Shown one piece after another: positions 2,648 through 63,955 of a stretch of DNA of 64,000 bases. Positions within the stretch are counted from its first letter, which is position 1. Each line of letters begins with the position of its first letter. Source of the stretch: Escherichia phage 308Ecol101PP. The position numbers and the translations under genes are program-made. Under the pieces are notes generated by a model. It did no database searches. It was not told the DNA's origin and was given only the letters and a program-made list of their open reading frames with translations. Location of the stretch: sequence record OR062945.1, one strand, 5' to 3'.

Positions 2648-4461
2648 AAATTGAAAAAGAAATTGAAGGATTAATTCATAAAACTAATAAAGATCTTTTG
2701 AACGAGAATGCTAATAAAGATTCTCGTGTTTTTCCAACTCAACGGGACCTTATGGCTGGTATTGTGTCTAAGCACATTGCCAAAAATATGGTCCCGTCTT
2801 TTATTATGAAAGCACATGAAAGCGGAATTATCCATTTCCATGATATTGATTATTCCCCTGCTCTTCCATTTACTAATTGCTGTTTAGTAGATTTAAAAGG
2901 AATGCTTGAAAACGGGTTTAAGCTAGGTAATGCTCAAATTGAAACGCCTAAATCGATTGGTGTTGCTACTGCAATTATGGCACAAATTACCGCACAGGTT
3001 GCTTCACATCAGTACGGCGGAACGACTTTTGCTAATGTAGATAAAGTACTTTCTCCTTATGTTAAACGCACCTATGCAAAACATATTGAGGATGCAGAAA
3101 AATGGCAAATCGCTGATGCGTTGAATTATGCCCAATCTAAAACAGAAAAAGACGTATACGATGCATTTCAAGCTTATGAGTATGAAGTAAATACTCTTTT
3201 TAGCTCAAACGGTCAAACGCCTTTTGTAACAATTACATTTGGTACTGGAACTGACTGGACTGAACGAATTATTCAGAAAGCAATTCTTAAAAACCGCATT
3301 AAAGGCCTTGGTCGTGATGGAATAACTCCTATTTTCCCTAAACTTGTTATGTTCATTGAAGAGGGTGTCAATCTTTATAAAGACGACCCGAACTATGATA
3401 TTAAGCAGCTTGCTCTAGAGTGTGCAAGCAAAAGAATGTATCCTGATATTATTTCAGTTAAGAACAATAAAGCTATCACTGGTTCATCTATTCCTGTTTC
3501 TCCAATGGGTTGTCGTAGTTTCTTGAGTGTATGGAAAGATTCGACTGGAAATGAAATTCTTGATGGACGTAATAATCTTGGTGTTGTAACACTGAATCTT
3601 CCTCGTATTGCGTTAGATTCTTATATTGGAACACAATTCAATGAACAGAAATTTGTTGAGCTATTTAATGAACGAATGGATCTGTGTTTTGAAGCCTTGA
3701 TGTGTAGAATTAGTTCTTTAAAGGGTGTTAAAGCAACTGTTGCTCCTATTCTTTACCAAGAAGGTGCATTCGGGGTTCGTCTTAAACCTGATGACGATAT
3801 AATTGAGTTATTTAAAAACGGTAGAAGTTCAGTGTCCTTAGGATACATTGGTATTCACGAATTGAATATTCTTGTCGGTCGTGATATTGGACAAGAAATT
3901 TTAACTAAAATGAATGCTCGTCTTAAGCAGTGGACTGAAAGAACCGGTTTTGCTTTTAGCTTGTATTCTACTCCTGCTGAAAACCTGTGCTATCGCTTCT
4001 GTAAACTTGATACCGAGAAATATGGAAGTGTAAAAGATGTTACTGATAAAGGCTGGTACACTAATAGTTTCCATGTTTCAGTAGAAGAAAATATCACTCC
4101 GTTTGAAAAGATTTCTCGCGAAGCCCCATATCATTTCATTGCGACTGGCGGACATATTTCTTATGTTGAACTTCCTGATATGAAAAATAACCTAAAAGGT
4201 CTTGAGGCTGTATGGGATTATGCTGCACAACATTTAGATTATTTTGGTGTTAATATGCCAGTAGATAAATGTTTTACATGTGGAAGTACTCATGAAATGA
4301 CTCCTACTGAAACCGGATTTGTTTGTTCTATTTGTGGAGAAACTGACCCTAAAAAGATGAACACCATAAGAAGAACATGCGGTTATCTTGGAAATCCTAA
4401 CGAACGCGGATTTAATCTCGGCAAAAATAAAGAAATCATGCATAGGGTTAAACACCAATGA
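2644..4461 (+). CDS. nrdD: anaerobic ribonucleoside-triphosphate reductase
   Basis: 605 aa, C-terminal glycyl-radical region and CxxC zinc site (CFTCGS...CSICGE); uninterrupted ORF. Confidence 0.9.
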   Translation: MKIEKEIEGLIHKTNKDLLNENANKDSRVFPTQRDLMAGIVSKHIAKNMVPSFIMKAHESGIIHFHDIDYSPALPFTNCCLVDLKGMLENGFKLGNAQIETPKSIGVATAIMAQITAQVASHQYGGTTFANVDKVLSPYVKRTYAKHIEDAEKWQIADALNYAQSKTEKDVYDAFQAYEYEVNTLFSSNGQTPFVTITFGTGTDWTERIIQKAILKNRIKGLGRDGITPIFPKLVMFIEEGVNLYKDDPNYDIKQLALECASKRMYPDIISVKNNKAITGSSIPVSPMGCRSFLSVWKDSTGNEILDGRNNLGVVTLNLPRIALDSYIGTQFNEQKFVELFNERMDLCFEALMCRISSLKGVKATVAPILYQEGAFGVRLKPDDDIIELFKNGRSSVSLGYIGIHELNILVGRDIGQEILTKMNARLKQWTERTGFAFSLYSTPAENLCYRFCKLDTEKYGSVKDVTDKGWYTNSFHVSVEENITPFEKISREAPYHFIATGGHISYVELPDMKNNLKGLEAVWDYAAQHLDYFGVNMPVDKCFTCGSTHEMTPTETGFVCSICGETDPKKMNTIRRTCGYLGNPNERGFNLGKNKEIMHRVKHQ

Positions 4462-50124: not shown

Positions 50125-51072
50125 ATGTACAATATTAAATGCTTGTCCCAAGAAGAACAGTTAGAAGCTTACGGCCTGGTTGAATCAGGCAAATGGACTC
50201 GTAAAGAAATTGCCGATTACTTCGACATTTCAACAGATACTCTTCGTAAGATTGTTAAGAATTTTAAAGCAGAAGGCGTTGTCCCTGAAGCAAACGATGC
50301 CTCTTATGTAATCGAAGAAGTTCCAGAAAATGATGAACCTATTATCGGCGGACATCGTCCTGAAATCGTATGGAACGCGTCATCTAAATTTATTTCAATT
50401 ATTGAAGGACGCGTAGCATACAATGCGACTCCATCAAGTCATGCAAATTTTGAAGAAATTAAAGCTAATCTGGTCGCAGGAAACCTTAGTAAAGCTGTCG
50501 AACTTATTAACATCAAGAAAGCTATTAGTAAGTTTGTTGACGGTAATGTTGTTATTGAAGGTGGTAGTTTATTTTATCAAGGTATAGAGATTCGTTCTGG
50601 CCTGGTTAATCGTATTATTGATTCTATGGAAAAAGGCGAAGACTTTAAATTCTATCTACCGTTCCTTGAAAACCTGTTAGAAAACCCAAGCGAAAAAGCT
50701 GTACAACGTTTATTCGACTTCTTGGTTGCAAATGATATTGAAATCACTGAAGATGGGCATTTCTACGCGTGGAAAGTAGTTCGTAAAGATTATTTAGATT
50801 GCTATAGCGGTACATTTGATAACTCACCAGGTAAAGTTGTTTCAATGCCTCGTACTCGTGTTAACGATGATGATACACAAACCTGCTCCCGTGGTCTACA
50901 TGTTTGCGCTAAATCGTATATTCGTTACTTTGGTTCTAGCTCAGATAAAGTTGTTAAGGTTAAAGTTCATCCACGTGATGTTGTGTCCATCCCAGTTGAC
51001 TATGGCGATGCTAAGATGCGTACTTGTCGTTATGAAGTAATTTCAGACGTTACTGAATTATTTGCAGAATAA
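50125..51072 (+). CDS. rIIB: rIIB protein
   Basis: 315 aa (T4 rIIB 312 aa), by position after rIIA. Confidence 0.75.
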   Translation: MYNIKCLSQEEQLEAYGLVESGKWTRKEIADYFDISTDTLRKIVKNFKAEGVVPEANDASYVIEEVPENDEPIIGGHRPEIVWNASSKFISIIEGRVAYNATPSSHANFEEIKANLVAGNLSKAVELINIKKAISKFVDGNVVIEGGSLFYQGIEIRSGLVNRIIDSMEKGEDFKFYLPFLENLLENPSEKAVQRLFDFLVANDIEITEDGHFYAWKVVRKDYLDCYSGTFDNSPGKVVSMPRTRVNDDDTQTCSRGLHVCAKSYIRYFGSSSDKVVKVKVHPRDVVSIPVDYGDAKMRTCRYEVISDVTELFAE

Positions 51073-57824: not shown

Positions 57825-58484
57825 TTATTTAGCCCTTCCTAGTATTCGGATCGCTTGGTTGCATATAGCCGCTAAGCGATCTTCCTCAAGTATATTACTC
57901 CCCTTATACCAATACATCGTCACAGTTCCGGCATAGATGTTATCCAAATTAAAGTATGGACAACTATACATATAAGAAAGTTCGGCAGTCTTAGATTTTG
58001 TAGGCAAAAATGCAAATTCTGATTTAGATGAGAAATGACGGCCACTTAAATGAATTATATATTCATTGGCCGTTTTATCCACCGGGAATCCGCCAAGGGA
58101 CTTTTCAGAAATTGTGCTAGGTAGTTTGCCTTCATAAGCTATAAGGTCGACAAAATAATTTAAGTTTTTAGGTCTGAAAGAATACACAGCACTAAAATCT
58201 GCACCAGATGAGATATGAACTATTTGCAGTTGTTCTAGAGCCGCAGATTCAAAACGTAAAGCTCGTTCTTTTTGGATTATTTCAGTATAAGTATCATACT
58301 TAGCTCTTACATAATAATCCAGCAAAATACTTCCTTTGTACCATATTAGTGCCATTAGGAACAAAAGAATAATTACCGCTACTCGGGACATTAAAACCTT
58401 TCCGGTAGCGTTATCTTTGAAAATACGATCTAGCAACCCAAATAGAATATCACTAAGCGAAAATGATACTTTTGGTGTTGCCAT
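57825..58484 (-). CDS. t: holin T
   Basis: 219 aa with a single N-terminal transmembrane helix and large C-terminal domain; T4 T is 218 aa. Confidence 0.85.
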   Translation of the reverse strand: MATPKVSFSLSDILFGLLDRIFKDNATGKVLMSRVAVIILLFLMALIWYKGSILLDYYVRAKYDTYTEIIQKERALRFESAALEQLQIVHISSGADFSAVYSFRPKNLNYFVDLIAYEGKLPSTISEKSLGGFPVDKTANEYIIHLSGRHFSSKSEFAFLPTKSKTAELSYMYSCPYFNLDNIYAGTVTMYWYKGSNILEEDRLAAICNQAIRILGRAK

Positions 58485-58493
58485 AATACCTCC

Positions 58494-59045
58494 TTACTTA
58501 AAGATATTTATAATCGCTTTGATAATAGATTTGTTTTCAAGGTCAGGGAATTTAGGGAATTCGCCGCCAAGATGTTCATGTTTTTCTAAAAGGGCAAAGA
58601 ATTTTTTGAGCTCTTTAAATTTTCGTTTTTCTTCTCTATTAGCAACCTCTGCGTCAATAAGAGAACTTAAAACACTGAATAATTTATAGAGTTCATGAAT
58701 TTTCTTATCACGTTGAACTACGCGTTTATATGCTTCATCTTCCTTCCACCCGTCGTCGGTCCAAATGTCAAATTCACCGGGTTCTTCTGTAGTAACATTT
58801 TGAAGAGCACCTGGAGTGTCAATAACAATTTTTTGCTTATCATAAGTCCATACTGTTTTTCCACGATGGTCTTCAACATATACCCATTCTTGTTCGCGTT
58901 CATCAAATACAACAGCATAGCCTTCTTTAGGGTCTAAAGGTTTTTTTGGTGTCGAATGAGCCGGAAATCCTACGCCTTTTAATGGTTTATAATTTTCTTC
59001 TTTGTAAAATTCTTTAGTGTCAAAATAATAGTGATAGAGTTTCAT
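58494..59045 (-). CDS. 38: gp38 tail fibre assembly chaperone (T4 type)
   Basis: 183 aa, MKLYHYYFDTKEFYKEENYKP...; same length as T4 gp38. Confidence 0.8.
   Translation of the reverse strand: MKLYHYYFDTKEFYKEENYKPLKGVGFPAHSTPKKPLDPKEGYAVVFDEREQEWVYVEDHRGKTVWTYDKQKIVIDTPGALQNVTTEEPGEFDIWTDDGWKEDEAYKRVVQRDKKIHELYKLFSVLSSLIDAEVANREEKRKFKELKKFFALLEKHEHLGGEFPKFPDLENKSIIKAIINIFK
58505..58512 (-). promoter_or_regulatory. T4-type late promoter (TATAAATA on minus strand) for t, inside the 3' end of gene 38
   Basis: Plus-strand TATTTATA 21 nt upstream of the t start. Confidence 0.5.
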
Positions 59046-59077
59046 ATTATAAAAAAGGGACAGAAGTCCCTTCTCCT
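59046..59077 (-). promoter_or_regulatory. structured translation-initiation region of gene 38 (hairpin between Shine-Dalgarno and AUG)
   Basis: Minus strand reads AAGGAGAA-GGGAC-TTCT-GTCCC-TTTTTTATAAT-ATG; the hairpin sits between the Shine-Dalgarno sequence and the start codon. Confidence 0.5.
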
Positions 59078-62000
59078 TATGCTAAACGAACGATATAGTT
59101 AAAAGCAACGTTTTTAACTGTGTTTTCTGTATTTCCTGTGGCATTTACAGTTATTGTATGACCATGAGAACCAATCGCTACCGAATGAGAGTGGGCACCA
59201 ATACCTACAGTATGTGTATGGGCACCAATACCAACGGTGTGGGCATGGTTACCTGTGGTACTTGTAGTTCCTGACCAACTATGAGTGTGGGCACCATCTG
59301 AAGAAGTTTTGGCCATATTCGACGCTGCAGTAGCACCGCTCACGGATCCAGTGATTTTAGCGTTGCCGTTTGGTCCCGCACTATTGTATCCATCATAGAA
59401 TATGCTAGTGGGTACGCCGCCTTGTATCTGAGGGCCTGAACGCGCGTGTTGGTGCGCACCAGCGGAACCAGTATTACCACTCACTGTATGGTTATGATTA
59501 CCAGTGGTATTGCTGGTCTTAGTACCATAGTCGAAGCTACTTGTCGTCTTAGTACCATAATCAAAACTTGACGTGGTCTTAGTACCCAAATCTGTGCTTG
59601 ATGCACTTGCACTATGGCTATGTGACTTAACACCGTCTGCTTCTGTACTTAGTACAGCACGCCCGGATGGTTTACCCTTGATAGTTTGACCACGCATATC
59701 AGGCAGAGCGCCGGAAGGATACACCGCAGCTAACTTAGGATACAAGCCAGCATCAAATGTTTGACCTTCCATTATGGCATAACCTTCAGGAGGTGTATCA
59801 GTAGGCCAAGGAATCGGAGCACCAATTGGATAACTTGAGACAATATCTGTCTTAAGGTTATTTATTGTGGTATTCAAGTTAGCAAAATTACCAGAACCAC
59901 CAGTAATATTACCATCAGTACCGAATTGAGCATTACCAACTTTTAATGGTTTAGTAATATCGACAGAATCAGAGTTTAATGCAATACCATGTGAATATGT
60001 GTAGCTGTGCATACGAACGACGTTGCCGCCATCGCCAATACCTAAATACCATTTCGGAACATCTGCTTTACGTCCTTGAATGAAGTTAGAAGACTCTTGT
60101 GTTGGAGCATTTATTCTAATAGCATCTGATGCCATATTTACTGTTATGCGTTGACCAGCCGTAGTACCAGTTGTATCTACTTTAAATCTACCACCGCCGA
60201 TATCTACTACATGGTCCATAGAAACTTGGCCATCGCCTAAATTGATATAAAACGGGCGAAGATTACTTATTCCACCACTTTCACCGGCATCTTTAGGAGT
60301 CGGAATAATGTACAGACTTGTTTCTGAACGTCGGAAAATAGCGCCGTATTCAGCGTTCCAAATTCTTAATGCGTCGGCTGTTCCACCGAATTTAGCTTGG
60401 CCGTTTACAGATAATCCATTATTTGCAACTAAACTTGATTCGCTAACAATAGAACCGGCCGATATAATACCACCACCCACACGTAAAGCGCCGGAAATTC
60501 TGAATTGAAGAGCACCGACAGTTTCAGAACCCGTCGGTGCTAAACGTTGAGAATAAAAATGATAGCCCTGGCCATCATACAATTCAAATACGGTTTCACG
60601 ATTACCGGCGGTGGAGTCGAATGCATTACCCCAGGCTTTCATAGTCAGATAACTTTTATTTTGTCCTGAACGGGTCCCGGCGTTCCACTGGATAGTTCTC
60701 GAGCCATCAACTTTGCTAGGGGCGCCAAATTTAAGGCCTTCGGTATTATTAGAACTATTTAAAAATAATTCGTTGTCTAATTTAACAGGTTGGATAGAAG
60801 AAATAGTGCCGTCAGCATAAAACTGTACATTATTAGAGCCAGTTACCAATTTCAAAATACCCGGATTAACTTCCATGCCTTCTTGAGTATTAATATTAGT
60901 TTTGCCTTTACCACGGAAATAGTGGTTCATTTTTCCGCCAGAATTATATCCAATATGGGTTTGACCATCTCCAGCAGAGTTTTCATCAGCCTGAGTTTGG
61001 ACTGATAAAAGAGCGGCGTTGGTTCCAGGCATAATCCATGTGGTTCCTTGGTCTTCTGAACGTCCAAATAAACCTTTGCGAGTACTACGGAAACTGTCAG
61101 GAGTAATAGAAGCAACAGAATTCCCTGAACCAACTAAATCATAAACACCGGTTTTTTTGTATGATAGCCCCGTCCCGTTATCGCCTAGAGCTAAATAAAC
61201 ACCGAATCCTAAAGCGGCACCATTACCATAGTCGCTTGACGGGTATCCTGCAGTCACAGTACCGATGGCCAGGCTATTGCGGATAATCATTCTGCCGTCA
61301 TTACGAATACCATATAATTTAAATGATGGTGTATTACCAGACCACCAAGAAACTTCATCAGCCTGGCCTGTTTGTGCAGTAACAATTTCATGATACATTG
61401 TACTACCGGATTTAGCTCGCACTTTACGAAGATAGTTTACACCATTCGTTTCGCCGGTGCCTGGATATACATAATTAACTAATGAATCTGTATCATATAC
61501 ACCAAAGGCTTTGCCACCGTGGATAACTGTATCAGCTGCAATGCGTTTAGTTACTAACGAATCTGATGCTAAAATACGGTTGGCTTGAAATTCACCGCCG
61601 TTTATAGAACGGAAATAGAATTCGCTATTAACGGTGCTTCCTGTTCCTTGTCTAACTCTAAGACGTATTTCACCATCAGTTGTAGTTTGAGGACGAGCAT
61701 ATATAACGCCTCGTTCAGTGCCATCAGCATTTTCAAACCATAAATGGGCATTTGATGTTTCACCAGGTGAAGCTCTTGTATAAAACGAACCTTGCAATGC
61801 TCTAAAAGTTTGAGCTGAAATACTAGTACCAGCGGTAATCTGGCCACTTGTGGAAAAATTTCCAAAATTGTTTATTGGCCCATTAACACGTAAAGTTCCA
61901 TTAATAGTAACGTTGCCGTCAACCTGGCCACCTTTAGCAAAGCCTAGGCTAATAATATTACCGAGGTCATCTTTAGTAAAAAGAGTTCGATCTTTTAAGT

Positions 62001-62094
62001 TTATCGCTAATTCGCCTTCGGCTAATTGTGCTGCAGTAGGATTAACTCCTGCCACTTTGCTTCTTTTAAATTGTATCTGTTTTAATGTAGCCAT
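59077..62094 (-). CDS. 37: long tail fibre distal subunit gp37 (receptor-binding)
   Basis: 1005 aa; C-terminal His-x-His repeats ([24 protein letters not shown]) and Gly/Ser/Thr-rich repeats. Confidence 0.85.
59150..59245 (-). repeat. tandem DNA repeats encoding the HxH motifs of the gp37 tip
   Basis: Repeated GGGCACCAATACC...GTGTG units readable in the plus-strand sequence. Confidence 0.5.
59515..59605 (-). repeat. three imperfect 30-33-nt tandem repeats inside gene 37
   Basis: GTCTTAGTACCATA... repeated three times, encoding [11 protein letters not shown] three times. Confidence 0.6.
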
Positions 62095-62102
62095 AAGTCC
62101 TC

Positions 62103-62765
62103 TTAATAATAGCCGAAATCTTGAACAGAATCTTTAATTACAATCTGGTCGAAACGAGGAACATGATTAGCCTCAGACGCCGGATTCTGTGAGAAAAAGT
62201 TTGGTGCTGTTAAAGTACCAATCATGGTATCGCCAGAACGCAATACACGGGAATTTGTGTTATCCGTAACAATATTTATTCGTCCATCAACATAATCTTT
62301 TCGTGTGAGATCATTTGCTGCAACCGGAGCAGTAGCGTTAGAACGGACAGGACCAATTGCATAAAAACCGCCCTTAGTGCTGATATCACCGGTACGAGCG
62401 TTAATAACAACAGTTCGGTCTGCTGAACCTTGTGATGACTTAAAACCAATACCATTCCACGAAACGATGTCAATATTTGCCATATCAAAAGTAGCTGCAT
62501 CACCGTTACCTGGATAAACACCACACTGTTGACTACTACCTACAGTAGGAACATGTACGCCTCCATTAAATCGAACAGTTGCAGCGTAAGTACCACCATT
62601 AGCTTTAGAAACGAAATCGTTATCAGCAGCTTGTGGTTTATTATATTCTGAATAGAGTTTAAACGTTTTATACAGGACGTCATCACCTGCTGGCATTAAA
62701 GGGAAATTACCTTGATGCCATATAACGGCACCGCCAGTTGTACTACCAGCTTTTAAATCGGCCAT
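62103..62765 (-). CDS. 36: long tail fibre distal connector gp36
   Basis: 220 aa (T4 gp36 221 aa), directly upstream of gene 37. Confidence 0.8.
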
Positions 62766-62797: not shown

Positions 62798-62822
62798 CAA
62801 AAATGGGAGACCGAAGTCTCCC
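62798..62822 (-). terminator. rho-independent terminator (UUCG tetraloop, minus strand) after gene 35
   Basis: Minus strand reads GGGAGAC-TTCG-GTCTCCC followed by ATTTTTG. Confidence 0.55.
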
Positions 62823-62827
62823 TAAAT

Positions 62828-63955
62828 TTATTCTGATGCTTCTTTAAATTCTTGTCCAAATACCTTACCAGTATCAGTTGAAGATTGAGTAGGTAATGTC
62901 ATTATGTCTGGAGCACTTAAAGATTCTGAAACATAATTTACACGAATACCATTTACACCAAACTCAGCAGGTTTTGAAACACTTCCATTACATGATACTT
63001 CAGTGAATATAACGTTTCTTAATCCACCTTGCCCGACTGGAGCTGTACGATAACAATAAATCGTGTACCCATCAGCTCCAGCAGGAATTTCTATATAGTC
63101 TTCATATATCTTCCATTCACCTGCGCCCCCATCAAAGTTTATATCCTTAAATGAAATAGGTGAAGTAGAAGGAGATTTAAAGAACCGAATAGAAAGTCGT
63201 GTCGTCCCTTGTGCTAACAAATCAGCATCAGCCATTAGTTGGAATTTCATATAAAGGAAATCTCCAGGCTTCAATTTATACCCAGCGAGAGGTGTAATAA
63301 GGGACGTTGTAGGCATCCTTTTAATTTCATTATTAGTACCTCCAACAGCAGATAAAAATGTGTCTGTCGATTCGTACGTACGACTAGGGAAGCCGGTAGC
63401 ACCAATATCATCGATCGTGTCGTACACAACATCAAGTGGTGTACTATAGTCGGTTGAAGTTTTCTTATTACTATACTTAATATGTTCTAGTGCTATAGCA
63501 TTCTTACCAGAAATATAAAATGCTGAATAAGAAATGTCCACTATATTTAAAACTTGTTGAGCTAATGGAATAACAGAACTCCCAGCTTTAGTAAACCATG
63601 CGAGAACTTCGGGTGGAAAGTTTGTTTTAGCATTAGTAACAAGAGCAAATATAAAATTTGAAGCGTATGTGTCCATGTAAGTAACGAATGCGCTTGACGT
63701 GGCGTCGTTTTCAGTAGAGAAATTATATGTCTTAGATTCAACTACTGCACCTGTTGTAGGATTTATTACACGAACGTTTAATCCAACAGAAAAAACCTGG
63801 GACCCAAGTGGATTATCTTGGAACTTAATATAAGCAGGAGATGTTGATAGCGGGCAAGAGCCCGCTATGCTTAATTTAAATCGTACTGAATTGCTTTCCG
63901 ATAAAAATGGCGTTTGGACGTATCCTTGTCCAAACTTAGCCATAAATTTTTCCAT
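62828..63955 (-). CDS. 35: long tail fibre proximal connector gp35
   Basis: 375 aa (T4 gp35 372 aa), by position upstream of 36. Confidence 0.8.
   Translation of the reverse strand: MEKFMAKFGQGYVQTPFLSESNSVRFKLSIAGSCPLSTSPAYIKFQDNPLGSQVFSVGLNVRVINPTTGAVVESKTYNFSTENDATSSAFVTYMDTYASNFIFALVTNAKTNFPPEVLAWFTKAGSSVIPLAQQVLNIVDISYSAFYISGKNAIALEHIKYSNKKTSTDYSTPLDVVYDTIDDIGATGFPSRTYESTDTFLSAVGGTNNEIKRMPTTSLITPLAGYKLKPGDFLYMKFQLMADADLLAQGTTRLSIRFFKSPSTSPISFKDINFDGGAGEWKIYEDYIEIPAGADGYTIYCYRTAPVGQGGLRNVIFTEVSCNGSVSKPAEFGVNGIRVNYVSESLSAPDIMTLPTQSSTDTGKVFGQEFKEASE

Follow-up and report, generated by a model that had tools for sequence, protein, structure and literature searches.

The gene for the distal tail fiber of Escherichia phage 308Ecol101PP (sequence record OR062945.1) ends in short tandem repeats and reiterated HxH motifs. 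The locus raises the question of whether such repeats serve to vary the fiber by recombination, to contact the receptor themselves or to hold out a separate receptor-binding part. The window analyzed here is a stretch of 64,000 nucleotides of this phage, and all coordinates refer to it. The original prediction described 59150–59605 as the repeat-rich receptor-binding tip of a gp37 tail fiber and saw in the tandem repeats a ready mechanism for variation of length and specificity. Our analysis favors a T4-type gp37 tip in which the repeats form a needle one rung longer than that of T4 and specificity lies in the head. To this explanation as a whole we assign a probability of roughly 0.85.

A T4-type fiber gene and its tip

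An open reading frame (ORF) of 1005 amino acids occupies 59077–62094 on the minus strand, stop codon included. BLASTP aligned its product end to end with T4 gp37 at 62% identity, and Pfam detected the Collar, gp37_trimer and Gp34_trimer families in it. The last 257 residues matched the T4 gp37 tip of known structure (2xgf_A; PDB 2XGF) with a phmmer E-value of 1.1e-75, query residues 1–135 and 153–257 being aligned. Judged by sequence, the ORF clearly encodes a homologue of T4 gp37, the distal subunit of the long tail fiber, and the gp37 identity that had been proposed is borne out both by the full-length identity and by the match at the tip. On the opposite strand the ORF list contains no frame of at least 60 amino acids across 59150–59605.

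Gene order around the gene 37 homologue is that of T4. A gp36-like ORF (62103–62765; Pfam Phage_T4_gp36, E = 1e-33) and a gp35-like ORF (62828–63955) lie upstream. Downstream are a gene 38 homologue (58494–59045, minus strand), whose 183-residue product is 68% identical to T4 gp38, the fiber assembly chaperone, and holin t (57825–58484; Pfam Phage_holin_T, E = 1e-90). The window belongs to a T4-like coliphage; over 24 kb it shares ∼95–96% identity with several Tequatrovirus genomes on deposit, none of which it matches exactly.

Distal fibers of the T2/T6/S16 type share the genomic position and the host-recognition role of the fiber in the window. In that type, gp37 has a self-cleaving C-terminal chaperone, and gp38 is a separate adhesin of about 260 residues with glycine-rich motifs and hypervariable loops, whereas the window has neither. 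Its gp38 is 183 residues long and of the TAP chaperone type (Pfam Caudo_TAP), and its gp37 ends in a collar/needle/head module, on which grounds a T2/T6/S16-type tip was rejected. Pfam detected no S74-peptidase-type or other additional C-terminal domain in gp37 and no glycine-rich gp38 adhesin. The sequence match to 2XGF, the collar, the HxH arms on either side of a head and the adjoining T4-type gp38 together identify the tip, at the level of sequence, as a T4-type gp37 receptor-binding tip with the 2XGF fold.

The repeat-rich region comprises the final 180 codons of the ORF. Within it, 59150–59605 extends from window position 59604 (aa 831), in the first 10-residue repeat, to window position 59152 (aa 981), in the last His box, which confirms both the existence of the repeats and their location on the minus-strand ORF. 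Preceding them is the collar domain (aa 758–805; 59680–59823, minus strand), identified as PF07484 Collar with an E-value of 4.3e-11 and a score of 43 bits against a curated cut-off of 24, and aligned with the collar of 2XGF. The features that follow lie on the same strand. At the top of the outgoing arm is HxH motif 1 (H825-S-H827; 59614–59622), which aligns with His-883 and His-885 of T4. The His-free stretch of this arm consists of three tandem 10-residue units (aa 831–860; 59515–59604), delimited by Tandem Repeats Finder (TRF) at period 30, by codon comparison and by a gap in the T4 sequence. HxH motifs 2 and 3, spaced 14 residues apart (aa 867–883; 59446–59496), make up the inner rung of the outgoing arm.

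The head domain is a non-repetitive segment of 52 residues (aa 884–935; 59290–59445) whose bounds were set at HxH motifs 3 and 4; it is the putative receptor-contacting tip, at the point of chain reversal. The returning arm (59152–59289) starts with HxH 4 (aa 936) and continues, after a 14-residue spacer, with four His boxes at 9-residue spacing (aa 946–981), defined by TRF at period 27 and by a second gap in T4. A conserved C-terminal tail (aa 982–1005; 59080–59151), near-invariant in 78 aligned tips, returns to the collar. The motif scan found eight HxH motifs in all (aa 825, 867, 881, 936, 950, 959, 968 and 977), in agreement with the reiteration that had been noted. Three of these precede the head and five follow it. 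The spacing is 14 residues between HxH 4 and 5 (aa 936 and 950) and 9 residues from HxH 5 to HxH 8 (aa 950–977), and the 9-residue boxes of the returning arm have the consensus GIGAHxHxV.

Repeat units in protein and DNA

TRF reported a period-30 array at 59514–59586 (2.4 copies, 79% matches, score 90) and two overlapping period-27 arrays at 59170–59248 (scores 77 and 79). These are the three highest scores in the 64-kb window at periods of at least 9, and an exact-seed repeat finder recovered the same repeat families. The best score among 30 shuffled windows was 69. Because no shuffled window reached a score of 77, the tip repeats are beyond what chance produces.

At the protein level, the tandem repeat of the outgoing arm is real, although its unit is 10 residues long rather than the 11 first proposed, and the three copies are two exact ones (aa 841–850 and 851–860) and a degenerate one (aa 831–840) with 7 of 10 residues identical. 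The DNA period is accordingly 30 nt by TRF and not the 30–33 nt originally given. The units are rich in Ser, Thr, Asp, Tyr and Lys, a composition compatible with a surface position. They are conserved in hundreds of homologues and are near-invariant across tips that have unrelated heads and come from phages of different hosts.

The DNA copies are much less alike than the description of the HxH repeats as near-identical had implied. The 30-nt units have 20–22 of 30 bases in common, and the two with the same translation show 8 differences in 30 bases, all of them synonymous. Among the 27-nt His-box units, 22 of 27 bases agree in the best pair and 7–20 in the remaining pairs. Identity between repeat copies overall is 63–81%, and the longest exact DNA repeat in the tip is 14 nt.

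One reading of these arrays would make them either a product of chance and low complexity or the mark of a system for targeted diversification, for example an invertible cassette or a diversity-generating retroelement. We give it next to no credence. Apart from the presence of repeats nothing speaks for it; the shuffled windows scored below the observed arrays, and the units are kept in hundreds of homologues, both of which argue against a chance origin. A chance or low-complexity artifact was rejected on the shuffles (0 of 30 at the observed TRF scores). In blastn and tblastn searches of the 64-kb window, neither the DNA nor the protein of the tip matched anything but the tip itself. A retroelement or cassette was likewise rejected, the window containing neither a template repeat nor an alternative C terminus.

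Coupled copy numbers in the two arms

The T4 tip in 2XGF has the same domain order as the window tip, with a collar, an HxH-lined needle, a conserved C-terminal tail and a gp38 chaperone encoded downstream. In the BLASTP alignment the two needles differ in length at only two places, a 10-residue gap and a 9-residue gap in T4. The outgoing arm thus has three 10-residue units in the window and two in T4, the returning arm has four 9-residue-spaced His boxes against three, and the tip has eight HxH motifs against seven. The heads are unrelated in sequence and differ in length, with 52 residues in the window and 34 in T4.

This arrangement was followed through the homologues. The tips compared were those of 80 IMG/VR loci, of T4, of 116 database proteins with a parsable tip and of five named phages; the census covers 120 proteins and 80 loci among the matches listed, out of roughly 2,000 homologues. 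The database proteins are mostly truncated prophage fiber fragments of at most 450 residues and were used for motif counts, not for whole-fiber comparison. In T4 and the 80 IMG/VR loci listed, HxH 1 and HxH 2 are always 32, 42 or 52 residues apart, corresponding to 2, 3 or 4 units. The number of 9-residue-spaced His boxes equals the number of 10-residue units plus one in 132 of 133 distinct tips among the matches listed, a count that includes phylogenetically non-independent tips. The classes are two units with three boxes (2/3; n = 46), three with four (3/4; n = 75) and four with five (4/5; n = 11). A 14-residue HxH-HxH rung flanks the head on both sides in 58 tips and is missing from both in 71; four further tips have the two-sided rung with a spacing of 15 rather than 14 residues on the returning side.

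The one exception, a metagenome contig (L003), has three units and three boxes. It resembles a 27-nt, one-His-box deletion of a window-type tip or of tip L002. Such a tip may mean that a one-sided change in copy number is tolerated, or else that the contig is defective.

All six named phages, T4 among them, obey the relation. Phages of E. coli K-12 (Bas44), Yersinia pestis (phiD1), Shigella sonnei (SHBML-50-1) and Citrobacter rodentium (phiNP) have the 3/4 architecture, and T4 and Salmonella phage GRNsp7 have the 2/3 architecture. Repeat copy number therefore varies among relatives and does not track the host. The original prediction had named invariance of repeat number across phages of different host range as evidence against itself; no such invariance was seen, since two, three or four units were found.

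The closest relatives of the window tip are the Tequatrovirus gp37 proteins of vB_EcoM_NBG1, AdolfPortmann (Bas44) and Yersinia phage phiD1, which share its layout of three units, four boxes and eight HxH motifs as well as its head family. They differ from it by point substitutions only (97% tip identity for NBG1, 89% for Bas44 and 92% in tip DNA for phiD1). More distant are the side tail fiber tips of lambdoid and P2-like prophages, of Citrobacter phage phiNP and of Felixounavirus fibers (Bas63). These have a collar/needle/head module containing HxH motifs, and their units and boxes are coupled as in the window, but they are attached to fiber shafts unrelated to that of the window. Many of the prophage, phiNP and Felixounavirus tips are without the inner 14-residue rung, and their heads are shorter (30–39 residues).

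The coupling is not due to shared ancestry alone, because one head family spans several architectures and near-identical flanks hold more than one. Needles of the 2/3 and the 3/4 class both carry the head family of the window, a second head family is shared by 3/4 and 4/5 needles, and more than one architecture was seen within each of three backgrounds whose flanks are at least 90% identical. A conservative count over closely related backgrounds gives a minimum of five changes, of which about four are coupled and one is uncoupled. Part of the coupling could still reflect a few ancestral needles that were inherited while heads were swapped onto them. To the literature examined, in which it is not stated, the explicit rule that boxes equal units plus one is a small addition.

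These data bear on the proposal that the repeats are mainly a recombination device, in which unequal crossing-over at the 30-nt and 27-nt units changes tip length and with it host range. The end-points of duplications in T4 gene 37 are said to lie in His-box motifs. Copy numbers of two, three and four among relatives fit such a device, as does L003, which next to the window and L002 looks as if it had simply lost one box. An extension of host range to Yersinia has moreover been reported for T4 gene 37 duplications (Tetart 1996, cited in a passage of PMC7002106). Against the proposal stand the exact identity of at most 14 nt between DNA copies and the synonymous differences between the units of identical peptide, which show that these did not arise by recent duplication. 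Copy number is also unrelated to the host, and one-sided change was seen in 1 of 133 tips, which indicates strong structural constraint.

The descent of the individual units points the same way. Units 2 and 3 of the window match the same units of Bas44 at 29 and 27 of 30 bases, respectively, compared with 22 of 30 for the other unit. Because each unit matches the same Bas44 unit better than the neighboring one, the array appears to have been inherited stably; this same-copy signal, clear with Bas44 and mixed with L002 and phiD1, weakly suggests inheritance of the array. We therefore regard recombination as the main function of the repeats as rather doubtful. Copy number does vary and T4 duplications have been reported, so the ready mechanism first envisaged retains some substance; the low DNA identity and the near absence of one-sided changes do not fit it. 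Given the short exact matches, the synonymous divergence, the same-copy match to Bas44 and the rarity of one-sided variants, recombination at the motifs is better described as occasional variation filtered by strict structural constraint than as a ready switch.

Needle, metal sites and receptor specificity

In the T4 needle, seven iron ions are each held by histidines of three chains (PMC6957217; iron coordination by HxH is also described in PMC12609058), in support of the metal-binding role that had been named for these motifs in the T4 fiber tip. The fold is defined as a homotrimer in which six histidines per site coordinate the metal ion octahedrally. Each chain leaves the collar, runs down the needle and turns back at the head, so that three chains build a needle of six strands, and the number of HxH motifs may scale with needle length (PMC12609058). 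Domain D10 of T4 gp37 includes residues 1010–1026 (PMC6957217). The fold, iron binding by HxH, the role of the head and the requirement for a chaperone are thus already established for T4.

By homology with T4, three chains in the window tip would each leave the collar, descend a thin six-stranded needle, form a small head and return to the collar. With all three chains contributing, each HxH motif would hold a single metal ion, iron in the case of T4, in the core of the needle. From eight motifs eight ions are predicted, compared with seven in T4, and the eighth site is a testable prediction. The His-free 10-residue units of the outgoing arm probably adjoin the 9-residue GIGAHxHxV boxes of the returning arm to form the rungs of the needle. 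We infer this side-by-side placement from the hairpin topology and the coupling of copy numbers and not from coordinates. With the units set against the boxes and the register kept, the two arms would have to lengthen or shorten together. One rung more than in T4 would make the needle a few nanometers longer, taking the usual rise per residue in a β-strand.

The main role of the repeats would accordingly be structural, as spacers and metal clamps that make the tip stiff and stable. Short DNA homologies at the His boxes and the 10-residue units may allow occasional unequal recombination, and selection for register would leave only those changes that keep both arms aligned. Structure prediction, which had been suggested as a check on the tip, was run as an AlphaFold2 monomer from a 78-sequence alignment; it gave a mean pLDDT of 50.5, a pTM of 0.19 and almost no secondary structure, and the model is unusable. 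A poor monomer model is expected where the protein is an obligate, intertwined trimer dependent on metal and chaperones.

If the repeats are the shaft, specificity should be sought elsewhere. Tips of the T4 type are characterized by a head that binds an outer-membrane porin (OmpC in T4), the LPS core or both. The heads of the homologous tips fall into 33 clusters, making the head the variable segment. In T4, residues 929–958 of the tip subdomain are critical for binding of OmpC and LPS (PMC6957217), and the BASEL paper associates gp37 tips of the C-terminal-extension type with OmpC in a general statement. Because the head varies among head families and corresponds to these T4 residues, the non-repetitive segment aa 884–935 (59290–59445) most likely carries the receptor specificity of the phage. 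The repeats would then be needle shaft and not the receptor-contacting part. What had been called a repeat-rich receptor-binding tip does belong to the receptor-binding tip; the receptor-contacting portion is nevertheless most likely its non-repetitive head. Because the HxH count and the number of arm units differ and the head is longer and unrelated in sequence, receptor specificity probably differs from that of T4 in detail.

A role of the 10-residue units in receptor binding is improbable by comparison. Under that proposal the Ser/Thr-rich units would bind the receptor, for instance LPS sugars along the side of the needle, and their number would tune avidity or specificity. Their surface-compatible composition would permit such contacts, and T4 gp37 does bind LPS as well as OmpC (PMC6957217). 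The units are, however, near-invariant across unrelated heads and differing hosts, the opposite of what a specificity determinant would show, and the critical receptor residues of T4 map to the tip subdomain.

Still less probable, and in our estimate very much so, is a “Trojan horse” function, in which an iron-loaded needle baits siderophore receptors and more HxH motifs mean more iron on display. The idea has been discussed for HxH-bearing fibers (PMC11705849), and the window tip does have eight such motifs. As we read the fold, however, the ions lie enclosed within the needle. OmpC and LPS are the receptors known for T4-type gp37 tips (PMC6957217; BASEL paper), and nothing in the window bears on siderophore receptors.

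The tip architecture and head family described here are already present in deposited phages, so the feature itself is known, and with near-identical tip alleles on record at up to 97% identity its value as a discovery is small. Its value for annotation is that the specificity segment of this phage is placed at aa 884–935 and not in the repeats. The coupled change of the two repeat families also supplies a simple constraint for shortening, lengthening or swapping tips.

A further reading goes beyond the observed homology, motif counts and coupled copy numbers, and we put it forward tentatively, as a whole rather unlikely to hold. It treats needle length as a quantized trait that evolves apart from the head and is built from paired rungs, each consisting of one 10-residue unit and one 9-residue box, with the paired 14-residue rung as an optional addition. 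Length would then change only by matched events on both arms and might be tuned to the depth of the receptor beneath surface glycans, whichever head the needle bears. Were this true, the relation of boxes to units would amount to a design rule for fiber tips of chosen length.

The gap between gp37 and gp38

The minus-strand gap between the stop codon of gp37 (59077-59079), the distal subunit of the long tail fibre, and the ATG (59043-59045) of gp38, a homologue of the T4-type fibre assembly chaperone, contains a strong RNA hairpin, GGAGAAGGGAC-UUCU-GUCCCUUUUUU (59051-59076). The folding energy of this hairpin, -15 kcal/mol (z = -3.5), was equalled by no shuffle. The sole Shine-Dalgarno-like GGAG lies approximately 30 nt from the gp38 start codon, within the 5' side of the hairpin stem. 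T4 gene 38 has a 'split' ribosome-binding site that is bridged by a hairpin, and the combination of an upstream hairpin with a distant GGAG at gp38 resembles that arrangement. The hairpin was absent from the output of the terminator scan. One related GenBank record has a terminator annotated beneath the matching stretch.

The gp37 shaft and tip

Residues 640-715 of gp37 (window positions ~59950-60180), directly N-terminal to the collar, show no relation to T4 and form a stretch that is ~58 residues shorter, with high similarity to T4 on both sides. The segment is a typical case of mosaic replacement within the shaft of the fibre.

The rule that the 9-aa-spaced His boxes of the tip outnumber its 10-aa units by one was broken by a single tip of 133, that of metagenome contig L003 (IMGVR_UViG_3300030021_000020; locus positions 3001-3744), which has three units and three boxes. 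The L003 tip reads as if a window-type gene had lost one 27-nt box. Such a loss could be tolerated by the phage, could mark the phage as defective, or could stem from misassembly of the contig. Within the window, the tandem array ranking next after those of the tip (51028-51068; two copies with a period of 20-21) has a score of 52, which falls inside the shuffle range.

A tip 65% identical to that of the window gp37 was found in a 'side tail fiber protein' of MW057783.1, a 48-kb record named Campylobacter phage CJLB-4. Such a host assignment is odd for an enterobacterial gp37 tip module. In five database proteins (P0028, P0030, P0084, P0111 and P0112) the collar/tip module is joined to unrelated Pfam domains, for example terminase GpA or an Ail/Lom outer-membrane protein. 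Errors of gene calling or of assembly in prophage regions probably produced these fusions.

The gp35-like ORF and its junction with gp36

A second hairpin, GGGAGAC-TTCG-GTCTCCC (62805-62822), with a perfect 7-bp GC-rich stem, lies between the gp35-like and gp36-like ORFs, within the late tail-fibre gene cluster. On the minus strand a run of T residues comes directly after it, and the terminator scan found both strands to be terminator-like. The sole Pfam match of the gp35-like ORF (62828-63955, minus strand) is to PF15711 ILEI, an interleukin-like EMT inducer/FAM3-type domain (residues 58-128; E = 1.2e-6; 29.4 bits versus a cut-off of 27), which is an unexpected family for a tail-fibre hinge protein.
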